Source: Escherichia phage Ptacy1479. Taken from it: DNA of 64,000 nucleotides. The stretch lies in the sequence record PQ863256.1; one strand, given 5' to 3'. The notes beneath the pieces are model-generated. The model did not search any database. It had not been told where the DNA came from and saw nothing but the letters and a program-made list of their open reading frames with translations. Position numbers and translations under genes: made by a program. Shown piece by piece: positions 51,506-64,000 of the stretch (its first letter is position 1; each line of letters begins with the position of its first letter).

Positions 51506-51580
51506 TGGCGTTCCCTCGTGGAATCGAACCACGAATAAGAGCTTAGAAGGCTCCAGTTATATCCGTTTAACTAAGGGAAC
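51506..51580 (-). tRNA. tRNA-Arg(UCU): tRNA-Arg (anticodon UCU)
   Basis: Manual fold: acceptor GTTCCCT/AGGGAAC, D-stem GTTA/TAAC, anticodon stem GGAGC/GCTCT with loop CTTCTAA, T-arm CGTGG-TTCGATT-CCACG, discriminator G, encoded CCA; 75 nt. Confidence 0.8.
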
Positions 51581-57900: not shown

Positions 57901-58800
57901 TTATGCCGCCTGACGTGCCGCCATAATTTCAGCCGCTTTACGCAACACTTCTTCCTCTTCTTCTTTCGCAGCTTGTTCGGTACGGGTAGCAACCGTTGAA
58001 GAGATACGACCGCGCAGGCTTTCTAACTTCTCCTGCATAGCTGCAACAGCCTTTTCCATTTCATCAGCGTATGAATCGAGGGATTCTAATTCCTTGCTTG
58101 ATGCGTTCATCAGATAATCATCAGAGATCGCTACCGTTGAGGCCGTGACTTTCTTGATGAGTGAATCAAAGGATTTTTTAACCTTCCCTACTTCTTCACT
58201 AAGGGCGATAGTGTTGTCGCTGGTAGCGCCATTGCGCTCATCAGCCAGTAATTTGGCTTCAATACGGATTGCGTTCAAGCGTTCAACCAAAGCGTAAATA
58301 TCTTGGTTAAAATCTTCCTTGTTTTTCGCCGGAATTTGCAGGTGTGCCGCCACGTTGTCATTACAACCCTTATAAAAGTTAGGGTTATCGACTTCAATTT
58401 CACGGCCTAAAGCAAAGTTTTCGAAAGCGTTTGACCAGCGAGCGCGGTTTTGTTCCATTTTAGCCTTGATTTGCGCTTCTTTCGCGTCTTCTTTAGCTTT
58501 CGCCTCACCTTCCAGATTAATCCACTTTTTACGACCGTTCGCCGCATCAGTGTTAAACTTGATAGGAGTTAAGAAAGTAATTGCAGTGGCAATAACATCC
58601 ATATCACGGAAACGTTCAGTTAACAAGAAGTCAACCGCCGCCTGCAATACGTCCAGCTTCTTACCATTACTGCGGAAGTGCTGTAAGTGCCCTAACAGGA
58701 AGTTAGAAACATCTTGTTTGATCGCCGCGTTATTACTGCGAATGTTGTTAGCCAGAGCATTAAAACCGGATTCGTTAACCAGAGTAAAGATTTTAGCCAT
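57901..58800 (-). CDS. hypothetical protein, first gene downstream of the long ORF-free region
   Basis: Start at ATG 58800 with AAAGGTGA RBS; about 300 aa with coiled-coil acidic C-terminus. Confidence 0.45.
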   Translation of the reverse strand: MAKIFTLVNESGFNALANNIRSNNAAIKQDVSNFLLGHLQHFRSNGKKLDVLQAAVDFLLTERFRDMDVIATAITFLTPIKFNTDAANGRKKWINLEGEAKAKEDAKEAQIKAKMEQNRARWSNAFENFALGREIEVDNPNFYKGCNDNVAAHLQIPAKNKEDFNQDIYALVERLNAIRIEAKLLADERNGATSDNTIALSEEVGKVKKSFDSLIKKVTASTVAISDDYLMNASSKELESLDSYADEMEKAVAAMQEKLESLRGRISSTVATRTEQAAKEEEEEVLRKAAEIMAARQAA

Positions 58801-59623
58801 GATATTCACCTTTCAATTGTAAGGGCGCTATTGCCCCGCTCTCTATGAGCTTGCTTAAGTCACTATTAACTTAACTCTAACCACTCACTATTAAGTAGTT
58901 ATAGGTAAGTGGGGCGGTCTTATCAGGAGTTAACCTTGCCGCCCCCTTATCCGTGATGTTTCATCTGGTATCTTTAATTAGTCGCTATAAACGAAGCCGA
59001 CCTGATAGCGATGATCAATCATCACAATAAGGCTATGCGTCCGACTCTAATTAGTTACGTTTATTGTAACCGTCGGCAATATCGTCTACTTTGTTTTCGC
59101 TCCCGCCTATCCTTTGTGCCAACTCCTAACCGCTAACCATCGCCCACTACGGGAGGTTATTGCGGAAAGGTCATTGACCGCCTAGTATTCCGGCGTTTTA
59201 TATCTTTCAGCAGGTTTACTACATAACCCGACTATGTACATTCCGATACTCTGGACTCTCAAGCCGTTCACATCGTAAACGTTCGCATTAAACCTTATTG
59301 TTAAATAGCAATTTGCCACTTTTTAACCACTCCCCGCCGCTCTCAATTGAGCGTTATTTCTTCGGGCTTGCCTACCCTGATTAACTTCTTTCACTGTAGC
59401 GCCTTGTTAGCGATGACCGCCGCTACCCTTAACCGTGGGCGATTAGCTTAAGTCTTTGCGTGCACTCAATGAATCCGTTTATCAGTGGTGACGTTTCCAG
59501 TAAGGGATTGTAAGGCTGTTTTCTCTGATAGTTTAGAGAGTCTTACACCGTTTTATCTGGTATGTTATCCGATGGTTATTATCATCTAACATATTCAACC
59601 GATATAGGAGAATGTTTAAATTA

Positions 59624-59634
59624 TTAAAGAGCGG
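59624..59634 (+). repeat. TTAAAGAGCGG repeat copy 1
   Basis: Exact 11-mer shared with the copies at 59859 and 60171. Confidence 0.5.
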
Positions 59635-59858
59635 TAAATCTATCAGCGTGCTTTCTCACGCTATGCAACTGTTAGCCGTTGTTGCGCTTTTCACTGAAGC
59701 GGTGATTTGCTTAGTGAGTGCTCATTATGAATCATGTTGTTTTCGCTGTCAACCACTTTTTTAATCTTTTTTCGTCGTTCCCGCTATTGGGAGGATATAT
59801 CAATCAGCTTTATTTGATTGAGGATTAAGCGGTGAGGCTTAACTTATGATTCATATTG

Positions 59859-59869
59859 TTAAAGAGCGG
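59859..59869 (+). repeat. TTAAAGAGCGG repeat copy 2
   Basis: Exact 11-mer. Confidence 0.5.
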
Positions 59870-60170
59870 TTACTACATTCACAGCTTAACACATCGTGTT
59901 AGCTTGTCAAACTCTTTTTATCATCTTCTTTTATTCCGTTCCCTTATCTCGCGTGAATCTTTGCGAAAGGGCAAGATGATAAGTCTGATTTATCTCTCAG
60001 GAATCTAGTGCGCTTTCAAGCGTTGACCATTTGAAAGTATCGAACAAATGAGGCTTATTTTGTTGCTCATCATCCGCCTGTTTCACGTATGAATCAGGAA
60101 TCAATTCTAGCGGTCAACTAAGCGCCTTATAGTAATGACATTAACGCCACCTGTAAGACAAATCATGTTT

Positions 60171-60181
60171 TTAAAGAGCGG
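60171..60181 (+). repeat. TTAAAGAGCGG repeat copy 3
   Basis: Exact 11-mer preceded by T-run. Confidence 0.5.
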
Positions 60182-60278
60182 GATTTTTCAAGTCATCGCT
60201 GACTTTGCTCATTATGTATCAGGCTTTTTTCGGTGTCAATACTCTTTTTAAGAATATTTTCACTTTCTAGCCTGATTT

Positions 60279-60288
60279 TTAAAGAGCG
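60279..60288 (+). repeat. TTAAAGAGCG repeat copy 4
   Basis: 10-mer core preceded by T-run. Confidence 0.5.
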
Positions 60289-60745
60289 TAGCACTTTCAT
60301 TGTGCGTCTTACTGTCGGTATTCCTACCGCTCCCCGTTGAAGCCTTTTACCGTGATGCTAATCACCTATCGAGGAGTTTTTACTTCTTGTTGCTTACTGC
60401 TTACTACGGGATTCATATTAATATATAGGAAAATCTTGTCAATACCCTTTTTTCAAATTATTTTATATCTTACTGTTTTATAAAGGAATTTATTTTAGGG
60501 AGGATAGGAACTACAAAGAAATCAGGGGATAGAGGAACGGGCGCGCGTGATACATCATAAGAAACGGCTTGTAAAGCAATAATAAGCGGCCTATAACGCA
60601 TCACAACGAGCTAAAGGGGAGTAAGGCATACAATCACCCTATAAAATAGAAAAGCCTCGCATAGAGGCTTATAGGAAGGATTAGAGAATCAGATAGATTA
60701 TGACCATAGGCATGACTACGGCACAATAAAGAAGAAAGAGTAAGC

Positions 60746-61111
60746 CTAAGGATTTACACATTGACCGTTACCGGATTCTACTTCGTTCATGGACTCATCA
60801 AAGAGTGTCAACGATGAGCGCATCAAGTGATCCACCGTGATTTGTTTACCAGTGGATTCATTTACCAACTGTATAGTTTTATCGTATGATTGCACATAAT
60901 CGAAATCATTTACATGCAAAATAATAACCTTAGGTGACTTTTTACCAGTCGAATAGTTTTCTATCAAATAGGTACACTGTAAACCTTCCACCGTAGCAGG
61001 GGAGAATGTTGCAGCTTTAACGCTACCCATAGCCGATAGCAGGACACCTAACAGAAGAATGACCAGAAAGAAGCCTACAACCGTTTTAACGACGAATTTA
61101 ATAAACCACAT
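60746..61111 (-). CDS. membrane-anchored (signal-anchor) protein
   Basis: N-terminal TM VVGFFLVILLLGVLLSAMG then soluble domain. Confidence 0.4.
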   Translation of the reverse strand: MWFIKFVVKTVVGFFLVILLLGVLLSAMGSVKAATFSPATVEGLQCTYLIENYSTGKKSPKVIILHVNDFDYVQSYDKTIQLVNESTGKQITVDHLMRSSLTLFDESMNEVESGNGQCVNP

Positions 61112-62843: not shown

Positions 62844-63626
62844 TTTGTTAATCCTTTTGGTTGATGAAAAACTACAAACTACACTCGCAACTATATATTA
62901 AAGGAAAAAGCTGTCAACCATTTATTTTCTAACTTTCTTGCATCTTACTGAAAACTAAAGGAATTTAATTTACTAAACTTCCCATACTCAGAGAATCAGC
63001 TTACTGACTATTGTTACTTTATAACACTAATCCTACGGGTAGCAGACCAACATACCAGGGCAAACGGGGATACAACAACCGCAGAACAGACCACGGGGAA
63101 ACATGCCAGATAGTGCGGTAATAATATACCACTTAAATAATTAGTTAACTATTAATGACTCAAACATCAAATACCCTTCGCTTACGCTCAGGTACGCTGA
63201 AAAAGAAAGTAATAAAAGAAACAATAAACATCAAACATAATCTTTCCACTTGATTAATACATATATCATTATTGCACTCATAATCATTACTATTGAAACT
63301 ATTTACAATCAAACTATGGGGGAAGTGGGCTATTACTTATGGGTATTATTAGACCTGTTATTATCACGCCTTAACAGAGTCTAGCCTTTCTCTCACTCTT
63401 TAAAGGGGTACTAAATAAACGGGTAGCTAATGAATAGGATGTTATACACGGGGAAAGAATAACGGGGAGTAGGCACGGGGAAAGGTGGAACGTTGAAAGG
63501 GAAGGTAAAGGCATTGCCAATAACCCTTTTTTAAATGAGGACTCCCCCTTTTTAGGAAACACGCGGGAAGCGGCTAGCCCCACTCGGTCAAATCAGAATT
63601 TTAAACTGTTATATATAAGGTTGAAT
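62844..63626. other. divergent intergenic region with G-rich ACGGGGA iteron-like repeats
   Basis: About 0.8 kb without ORFs, between - strand gene 61971..62843 and + strand genes from 63627; ACGGGGA at 63064, 63093, 63448, 63462, 63475. Confidence 0.5.
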
Positions 63627-63773
63627 ATGAATCTCGATACTAAAGAGTTTATTAAAATTGCAATAGAAGATAATCTAAAGAAGCTCGGTGATATTTCTTT
63701 ATCAGATAGAGAACGAGTGGAAGCAGCTAACATGCTAGTGTTACTAACTAAAGCATTACGGGAGTTGGAATGA
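63627..63773 (+). CDS. small hypothetical protein
   Basis: 48 aa ORF with AAGG RBS. Confidence 0.3.
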   Translation: MNLDTKEFIKIAIEDNLKKLGDISLSDRERVEAANMLVLLTKALRELE

Positions 63774-63931
63774 ATCTAATTAAAGTATTTAGACGGATGA
63801 AATGTAAACATGATTACTATCTTCTTCGTAAAGCTTACGGGGATGAAAGAATACACGGTCTTTACCTGTCAACATGGAAGTGTAAGGAATGTGGTAAGCT
63901 ACGGTTTAGTGAATGGATGGACAGGCCATAA
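63770..63931 (+). CDS. small zinc-ribbon-like protein
   Basis: 53 aa ORF with CKHD...CKECG; ATGA overlap with upstream gene. Confidence 0.3.
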   Translation: MNLIKVFRRMKCKHDYYLLRKAYGDERIHGLYLSTWKCKECGKLRFSEWMDRP

Positions 63932-64000
63932 TGGAATGGATATTCTGGTTAGTAATAATCTTCTCCTTATTCATCTGCTTCTCTATAGCAAGATGTATCA
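63931..64000 (+). CDS. small hydrophobic protein (3' truncated by window end)
   Basis: Starts MEWIFWLVIIFSLFICFSIARCI; TAATG overlap with previous gene. Confidence 0.25.
   Translation, partial: MEWIFWLVIIFSLFICFSIARCI

Follow-up and report, generated by a model that had tools for sequence, protein, structure and literature searches.

Rho terminates long untranslated RNAs, and in the ribosomal RNA (rRNA) operons (rrn) BoxA-Nus complexes protect the transcript from it (PMC6614797). The gammaproteobacterial BoxA, the site of NusB/NusE, has the consensus GYTCTTTAANA (PMC5725501). In rrn, the order of boxB and boxA is reversed with respect to that in phage lambda, boxB is a hairpin without a consensus sequence, and boxA alone is essential, boxC having been reported to be dispensable for antitermination (PMC6614797). 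The Nus complex has also been proposed to act as an rRNA chaperone, with the 5' end held near the polymerase (PMC6614797; for work on the leader-trailer helix, see PMC10250234), and BoxA counters Rho on CRISPR arrays (PMC7665894). Here, we describe a spacer free of open reading frames (ORFs) in Escherichia phage Ptacy1479 (PQ863256.1), located at positions 58801 to 60745 of a 64,000-nucleotide (nt) stretch of DNA (the window) that represents a phiEco32-like coliphage (Gordonclarkvirinae). The spacer contains four BoxA matches and a large structured RNA, and it probably serves as control region and long 5' leader to the main leftward early operon, in what would be an rrn-like, Nus-modified, Rho-resistant transcription unit.

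The comparator sites were read from sequence. In the Escherichia coli rrnB leader, a boxB hairpin is followed by TGCTCTTTAACAATTTATCA and then by boxC (TGTGTGGG). The lambda sites have CGCTCTTAAAAAT and CGCTCTTAAAAATTAA in nutL and CGCTCTTA and CGCTCTTACACATTCCA in nutR, with boxB after each. In T7, the sequence CGCTCTTTAACAAT is present 63 nt past the A3 start, ahead of gene 0.3.

BoxA elements and predicted promoters of the spacer

The spacer has the homologues of phiEco32 genes 124 (57901 to 58800) and 125 (60746 to 61111) on either side, and it is to be read on the - strand because both of these and all of the early genes are on that strand. A first-pass annotation, made from the letters of the window, had described 58810 to 60745 as lacking any ORF of 60 amino acids (aa) or more and as separating two - strand gene groups. 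Both statements were borne out, the longest ORF within these limits on either strand being 50 aa. The real noncoding interval is slightly longer (58801 to 60745), since gene 124, with which the long leftward early operon opens, starts with the ATG at 58800 preceded by the Shine-Dalgarno sequence AAGGTG (58798 to 58812 together, - strand); the GTG at 58809 is an extension made by the ORF caller. The 1,936-nt interval is matched at 75 to 94% identity by about 100 Escherichia and Shigella phage records, including those of phiEco32 (72796 to 74730), SU10, and Paul. These phages belong to the genera Kuravirus, Suseptimavirus, and Nieuwekanaalvirus of the Gordonclarkvirinae, and in most of the records the spacer carries no annotation.

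The repeat TTAAAGAGCG(G) had been reported at 59624, 59859, 60171, and 60279, and exact copies are indeed present at these positions, all on the + strand, with no further exact copy in the 64 kb. Read on the transcribed (-) strand, the repeat is (C)CGCTCTTTAA, and all four copies are exact matches to GYTCTTTAANA, all on the - strand and within 59622 to 60287. The T-run said to precede the motif is present on the + strand; however, it is the A-rich 3' part of the - strand motif itself (CGCTCTTTAAAAAT). BoxA was missed in the first-pass annotation because the repeat had been read on the nontranscribed strand. When both strands of the window were searched, GYTCTTTAANA was found 4 times against 0.53 expected (in 0 of 100 shuffles), and YGCTCTTTAA was found on the - strand 4 times against 0.32 expected (at least four matches in 0 of 100 shuffles). 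By its match to the consensus on the transcribed strand, we consider the repeat a putative BoxA, to which NusB/NusE would be expected to bind.

The four copies, all on the - strand, are here numbered in the direction of transcription. BoxA-1 (CGCTCTTTAAAAAT; 60275 to 60288, previously listed at 60279) is preceded by hairpins at 60329 to 60316, with a GGAA loop, and at 60305 to 60291. BoxA-2 (CGCTCTTTAAAAAC; 60167 to 60180, previously 60171) is located at about +24 from the predicted P2 start, and the hairpin AAGTCA-GCGA-TGACTT (60205 to 60190) precedes it. BoxA-3 (CGCTCTTTAACAAT; 59855 to 59868, previously 59859) matches the consensus, and its 14-mer is identical to T7 nt 812 to 825 and shares 13 of 14 nt with the E. 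coli rrnB boxA, TGCTCTTTAACAAT. BoxA-4 (CGCTCTTTAATAAT; 59620 to 59633, previously 59624) is the last copy and is common to all transcripts. Its CCGCTCTTTAA is unchanged in all 23 aligned leader sequences, and it directly adjoins the 5' strand of the long-range helix (helix 5) that closes the first domain of the leader RNA described below.

Four sigma70-type promoters were predicted by a sequence scan of the - strand, with estimated start sites, in agreement with the earlier suggestion of an early promoter or regulatory array. Three of them had been predicted before: in SU10, three sigma70 promoters were placed in the spacer "like phage phiEco32," with listed counterparts of P2, P3, and P4 (PMC4281155, text and S2 Table). 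P1 (60415 to 60442; TTGACA-16-TAATAT, 10 of 12 matches, start at ~60408) is preceded by an A-rich tract; it is present in phiEco32, SU10, EK010, and EP335 and absent from the published SU10 list. P2 (60211 to 60239; TTGACA-17-CATAAT, 11 of 12 matches, start at ~60204) has a homologue that is an early promoter in the SU10 list (PMC4281155, S2 Table). P3 (59883 to 59910; TTGACA-16-TAAGCT, start at ~59876) has a weak -10 element, and its homologue in the same table is given with an uncertain -10; at this position EK010, SU7, NC-B, TH34, and StefiGeyer have TTGACA-16-TAGAAT. P4 (59724 to 59752; TTGACA-17-CATAAT, 11 of 12 matches, start at ~59717) is a 46-nt repeat of P2 with 78% identity (repeat family D2) and was found in all 13 spacers examined, with TTGACG as the -35 element in two. 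Immediately upstream of the -35 elements of all four promoters, P2 and P4 included, there are A-tracts.

On the - strand, the order of elements is thus terminator, P1-BoxA-1, P2-BoxA-2, a variable segment, a long hairpin, P3-BoxA-3, P4-BoxA-4, ~820 nt without an ORF, and gene 124. Each BoxA lies ~10 to 120 nt past a predicted sigma70 start. An intrinsic terminator identified in the terminator scan (60640 to 60670; stem AAGCCTC-tatgc-GAGGCTT followed by a T-tract) ends the upstream early operon (genes 128 to 125), and a homologous site is annotated in SU10 (PMC4281155, S2 Table); the scan gave no terminator between the leader and gene 124. The operon of genes 128 to 125 has its own predicted promoter (62890 to 62918, - strand; TTGACA-17-ATAGTT) and a leader of only ~45 nt without BoxA, and the predicted BoxA elements are specific to the long untranslated leader. 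No credible site for the promoter motif of the phage sigma factor gp36, TAATGTATA, was found in the region. The conserved long hairpin (UUAUCAUCUU ... AAGAUGAUAA; 59918 to 59982, - strand) is an inverted repeat (I8) with 10 of 10 complementary positions and a column identity of 0.92 to 0.96; it is located just upstream of P3, and in several relatives a BoxA lies directly before it.

For comparison, we used 23 distinct related spacers from GenBank, IMG/VR, and metagenome data. They hold 91 consensus BoxA copies, 3 to 5 per phage, all in the sense orientation and none in antisense. In these copies, the core GCTCTTTAA deviates only by a single T at the second position; the extended consensus is C-GCTCTTTAA-N-AAT, and the flanks and the copy number are variable, with many unrelated contexts (65 distinct ones upstream). 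Of the 75 copies with a promoter-like site upstream, 65 are no more than 130 nt downstream of the predicted start. In its upstream half, which is made up of promoter-hairpin-BoxA cassettes, the spacer has undergone rearrangement between the phages, the number and order of the cassettes being different. A 66-aa coding sequence is annotated after the first BoxA of SU7 (L004, 3829 to 4029).

A hairpin ending within 15 nt 5' of BoxA was found in 57 of the 65 distinct contexts, compared with 49% of shuffles, which gives moderate support, the contexts not being independent. There was no such enrichment 3' of BoxA (37 of 62 contexts, near background). The putative hairpin-then-BoxA order is that of the rrn-type boxB-boxA arrangement. 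The boxB-like hairpin of the last cassette, uAGCGUG-AGAAAG-CACGCUg (helix 3; 59644 to 59663, - strand), is located 10 nt upstream of BoxA-4 and has a loop resembling that of the rrnB boxB (UGAGAAA(A)AGC). Three of its seven pairs show compensatory changes, and one pair occurs as CG, UA, AU, and GC.

Structured leader RNA

The ~800 nt from the last BoxA to gene 124 are a conserved, strand-specific, noncoding structured RNA, and the suggestion in the first-pass annotation that the region might hold a noncoding RNA agrees with the covariation-supported secondary structure. From 59980 down to gene 124, an alignment of 13 phages is almost free of gaps, with column identities of 75 to 99%. The alignment used for structure prediction comprised the 23 distinct sequences over 59725 to 58781 (978 columns; mean column identity, 89%). 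The noncoding leader (58801 to 59725) is more conserved in these 23 phages than gene 124 (57901 to 58800), the mean column identities being 0.911 and 0.863, respectively.

RNAalifold predicted 237 consensus pairs for this alignment (-246.6 kcal/mol), of which 75 were changed on both sides and yet kept, and 99.0% of the cells on the consensus structure were standard pairs. Column shuffles gave 31.3 ± 3.3 covarying pairs, none of the 500 reaching 75, and controls in which the partners were slid by 1 to 3 columns gave 4 to 11. Likewise, 299 cells were changed on both sides, compared with 7 to 25 in the slid controls. Two or more covarying pairs were found in 17 helices, and several pairs occurred as four or five pair types; therefore, the signal goes beyond two recombining haplotypes. 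Since the structure came from the same alignment as the counts, the same procedure was applied as a control to the coding sequence of gene 124 from these phages, a more divergent sequence; it yielded 148 pairs, 10 of them covarying, at -61 kcal/mol. For the leader's reverse complement, the energy was -158 kcal/mol, with far fewer G-U pairs. The window sequence alone folded on the - strand at -265.5 kcal/mol (-213.6 ± 6.0 in shuffles; z = -8.7), compared with z = -3.2 on the + strand, and this single-sequence fold largely agrees with the consensus fold. The variable columns of the leader are evenly spread over codon positions (123/119/116), whereas those of gene 124 show clear periodicity (55/245/85). 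Coding potential of the leader was rejected on this lack of periodicity and on the lack of a conserved ORF.

The fold has 39 helices and three domains, all on the - strand. Domain I (59322 to 59620) is closed by pairing of 59620-59608 with 59334-59322 and encloses helices 6 to 16; in helices 5, 7, 10, 12, and 13, 3 to 5 pairs each show compensatory changes. A palindrome noted previously near 59340 (CTCAATTGAG) is present and corresponds to the helix 16 hairpin of this domain, GCUC-AAUUGA-GAGC, which has a UA-to-CG compensatory change in 6 of the 23 sequences. A second one, CTTTCAA...TTGAAAG, is likewise there (60014 to 60038) and forms a hairpin in the variable promoter-cassette part. Hairpin 17 (59303 to 59321; repeat family D1) carries most of a BoxA-like sequence, UGCUAUUUAACAAU (59298 to 59311), which is invariant, has one C-to-A change in the core, and is largely paired in helices 17 and 18. 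Domain II (59024 to 59301) is closed by helices 18 and 19 (59301-59284 with 59039-59024) and encloses helices 20 to 30, with compensatory changes in 6 of 6 pairs of helix 25 and in 9 of 13 pairs of helix 27. Domain III (58822 to 59023) is a row of hairpins (helices 31 to 39), and helices 34 and 36 have five compensatory pairs each. It includes, near the 3' end of the leader, AGAGAGCGG (58844 to 58836), which is nearly invariant, with one A-to-C change in four phages. This segment is complementary to BoxA (CCGCUCUUU), and the single-sequence minimum free energy structure pairs it with BoxA-4; with both strands almost fixed, covariation is uninformative for this pairing. Four copies of the motif YNGAURAAAC are found in the leader (59559, 59485, 58967, and 58926, - strand), partly at conserved unpaired positions; they may be a tertiary-contact or protein-binding motif.

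Covariance-model searches, proposed earlier as a check, matched no Rfam 15 family in the region at the gathering score, the database covering GOLLD, ROOL, 6S RNA, riboswitches, and introns; at E values up to 5, there were two chance-level matches (E = 3 and 3.6). No homologue of the leader was found in 5,426 complete E. coli genomes, and it is therefore not derived from the host or a prophage. At blastn sensitivity the leader is restricted to the Gordonclarkvirinae, and scans of IMG/VR and metagenome data gave close relatives only and no distant homologues. We infer that the RNA represents a new family.

Proposed antitermination and alternative readings

In the mechanism that we propose, host RNA polymerase would start at P1 to P4, and host NusB-NusE(S10) would bind the nascent BoxA RNA and, together with NusA, NusG, and SuhB, convert the polymerase into an rrn-type antitermination complex. 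This complex would withstand Rho on a transcript whose untranslated part measures from 0.9 kb, if begun at P4, to 1.6 kb, if begun at P1, and the Rho-resistant polymerase would reach gene 124 and the genes beyond. BoxA protection would fit the leader because an untranslated transcript of 0.9 to 1.6 kb is of the kind needing it. The complex loaded at BoxA-4 may also aid cotranscriptional folding of the leader, as proposed for rRNA, since BoxA-4 directly adjoins the first long-range helix (290-nt span) at its 5' base. The leader RNA lies in the path of all transcription of the main early operon, which makes this RNA a plausible control point. The sequence data establish the motif with its strand, position, and conservation, the promoter-like sites, the covarying RNA structure, and the lack of coding signal; binding of Nus factors, resistance to Rho, chaperoning, and a role for the RNA itself are predictions.

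The locus compares most closely with the E. coli rrn leader, in which tandem strong sigma70 promoters with A-rich upstream tracts, a consensus-free hairpin 5' of BoxA, and a long, highly structured untranslated RNA follow one another in the same way, with BoxA at the 5' base of a long-range helix and, as for TGCTCTTTAACAAT of rrnB, 13 of 14 nt in common. Unlike rrn, the phage spacer lacks a boxC-like element and has four BoxA copies, one per promoter; its RNA is ~0.8 kb long, is unrelated to rRNA in sequence, and runs into protein-coding genes, whereas rRNA is a stable product. In addition, the helix that joins leader and trailer around the whole RNA in rrn has no covariation support in the phage. 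The early region of T7 (A1, A2, A3, the BoxA-like sequence, and gene 0.3) is similar in that it belongs to a podovirus, has tandem strong host promoters at the early genome end, and carries the identical 14-mer CGCTCTTTAACAAT in the untranslated leader ahead of the first early gene. However, in T7 the last promoter is followed by a single copy, and the leader measures ~175 nt from A3, compared with four copies and a structured RNA of ~800 nt here.

The lambda nutL and nutR sites share with the phage region the core CGCTCTT(T)A and, after it, an A-rich spacer, and BoxA-1 and BoxA-2 (CGCTCTTTAAAAAT/C) resemble nutL CGCTCTTAAAAATTAA. In the phage spacer, however, the hairpin is located 5' and not 3' of BoxA, and no conserved boxB with a GNRA-like pentaloop follows BoxA. 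The seven neighboring proteins screened against Pfam and PHROGs gave no match to an N-like protein. A lambda-type nut site was rejected on these two grounds, namely, the lack of a conserved 3' hairpin and of an N-like match among these seven proteins. A consensus BoxA ahead of an unusually long untranslated transcript, countering Rho, is also known from CRISPR arrays (PMC7665894) and from the suhB 5' untranslated region (PMC5725501); these are chromosomal loci with a single BoxA, whereas the spacer belongs to a lytic-phage early operon and combines a BoxA array with a folded leader.

GOLLD and ROOL are large structured noncoding RNAs tied to phages and prophages, several hundred nucleotides in length and with many covarying helices. 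The phage leader resembles them in size class, number of covarying helices, and phage context, but it has no match in Rfam 15, occurs in phages of Enterobacteria, and lies in an mRNA 5' leader. BoxA antitermination and large structured RNAs are both of known kinds, and the promoters were already known or predicted; what is new is the combination of the first two in the early leader of a lytic coliphage, the BoxA array, and this RNA. We found no literature linking boxA to phiEco32 or describing a noncoding RNA in the Gordonclarkvirinae in a search that two primary phiEco32 papers fell outside, and a full-text search found none on boxA with the T7 early promoters. A more far-reaching possibility, which we offer tentatively and hold to be less probable than not, is that the folded leader of ~800 nt constitutes a new class of large, structured phage RNAs, produced like rRNA from strong tandem promoters by a BoxA-loaded, Nus-modified polymerase and having a function of its own early in infection. 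Such an RNA might be released through processing and act on host machinery or defence systems, or it might serve the early operon in cis as a large platform for regulation or folding, and the BoxA array may in addition drain Nus factors from the rrn operons of the host.

Several observations weigh against an rrn-like, Rho-resistant unit or against the fold as drawn. The leader RNA has more G than C overall and only modest C-over-G bubbles, and its intrinsic sensitivity to Rho may therefore be low. Antitermination alone does not account for four BoxA copies, since a single one behind the last promoter, the T7 arrangement, would be enough, and no GU-rich boxC (UGUGUGGG-like) was found in the 27 to 40 nt after each BoxA. 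P1 and the weak -10 element of P3 are no more than predictions. The 75 covarying pairs were counted in the same alignment that yielded the structure, and the sequences are related and recombining, so that the controls argue against an artifact but are not a formal test of the R-scape kind. Finally, two closings of the whole leader are conceivable, one between the BoxA-4 flank and the Shine-Dalgarno region (helix 4) and the other between BoxA and AGAGAGCGG, and neither shows covariation; helix 4 is partly broken in two phages.

Among the alternatives, the least improbable is a Nus-factor sponge, in which the BoxA copies on very abundant early transcripts would mainly titrate NusB/NusE/SuhB from host rrn and add to host shut-off, either in place of protecting phage transcription or besides it. 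The presence of 3 to 5 consensus copies per phage under strong promoters, when one is enough for antitermination and T7 has one, is in its favor, as is an extended rrn boxA match (C-GCTCTTTAA-N-AAT) that exceeds the minimal consensus. However, every copy is located just downstream of its own promoter, as loading in cis requires, and the multiplicity is equally explained by cassette duplication (repeat family D2). We regard a sponge as compatible with the data but unlikely. A DNA operator, in which a phage or host DNA-binding protein would recognize TTAAAGAGCG and regulate the early promoters, is more doubtful still. The repeats are interleaved with the promoters, and BoxA-1 is ~40 nt upstream of the P2 -35 element, but the motif lacks palindromic symmetry, all 91 copies face the same way along the transcript, and their position with respect to the -35/-10 hexamers ranges from +9 to beyond +120; moreover, the motif exactly fits the RNA-level consensus and the rrn and T7 sequences. 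That small unannotated proteins are encoded, as a few GenBank records imply by listing hypothetical proteins (10 in CHD5UKE1, 1 in Paul, and gp104 in SU7), is very improbable given the even codon-position counts. The stop-free stretches of the RNA strand are mostly 28 to 46 aa and unconserved between phages (66 and 90 aa in two phages), there are indels that break the frame, and the substitutions in helices are compensatory.

Two further candidates had been named in the first-pass annotation, and neither was supported. ColE1 RNA II is an RNA with conserved structure, and a transcription-activated replication origin of this kind would use the G-rich structured transcript as a primer or R-loop former, the repeats being iteron-like. 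The strong promoters beside a G-rich (C-poor) transcript, with a + strand GC skew of about -0.2 over 58850 to 59450, and the conserved RNA structure, shared with RNA II, are compatible with such an origin. On the other hand, the region has no DnaA box with up to one mismatch, no turn of the cumulative GC skew, and no AT-rich unwinding element beside the repeats, which are only ~14 nt long, irregularly spaced (108 to 312 nt), uniform in orientation, and linked in position to the transcription starts, and an origin would leave the BoxA match unexplained; we consider it as improbable as the operator. A packaging or terminal-repeat region, for which the location of a repeat-bearing noncoding region near one end of the genome map could be cited, is contradicted and has next to no probability: the phiEco32 right end corresponds to window position 63575, 2.8 kb from the region, and a separate ORF-poor stretch with TCCCCGT repeats of its own is found at that end.

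An rrn-like leader would account for a 1.9-kb blank in ~100 coliphage genomes of the abundant, therapeutically used, and little-studied Gordonclarkvirinae. If this reading is true, a lytic phage exploits the host rRNA antitermination machinery without an N-like protein, and BoxA/Nus control extends beyond rRNA, lambdoid phages, suhB, and CRISPR arrays. The leader is a large, strongly covarying RNA outside the known families, and with E. coli as the host of the phage, both mechanism and function are directly testable.

Neighboring features

The Pfam and PHROGs searches of the neighboring genes gave no functional lead. Gene 125 (60746 to 61111, - strand), in the upstream early operon, encodes a 121-aa protein with a hydrophobic N terminus; PHROG 13168 and several GenBank records call it "terminase," a label that looks doubtful, and in Pfam it has only a subthreshold YobH-like match. 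The early half of Salmonella phage 7-11, a distant phiEco32 relative of another family, contains no BoxA array. The tRNA/tmRNA scan of the window gave nothing within the region and a single match elsewhere, tRNA-Arg(TCT) at 51506 to 51580 (- strand), the sole tRNA of the window.

The second ORF-poor stretch, at 62990 to 63575, is located by the physical right end (phiEco32 nt 77554 corresponds to window position 63575). It contains TCCCCGT five times on the - strand (63064 to 63481), out of eight copies in the window against 2.7 expected. The window runs past the counterpart of the phiEco32 right terminus (63575 to 64000), from which it follows that the assembly either is a circular permutation or has been joined across the terminal repeat. 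The 62990-63575 stretch may be a terminal, packaging, or entry-related element.

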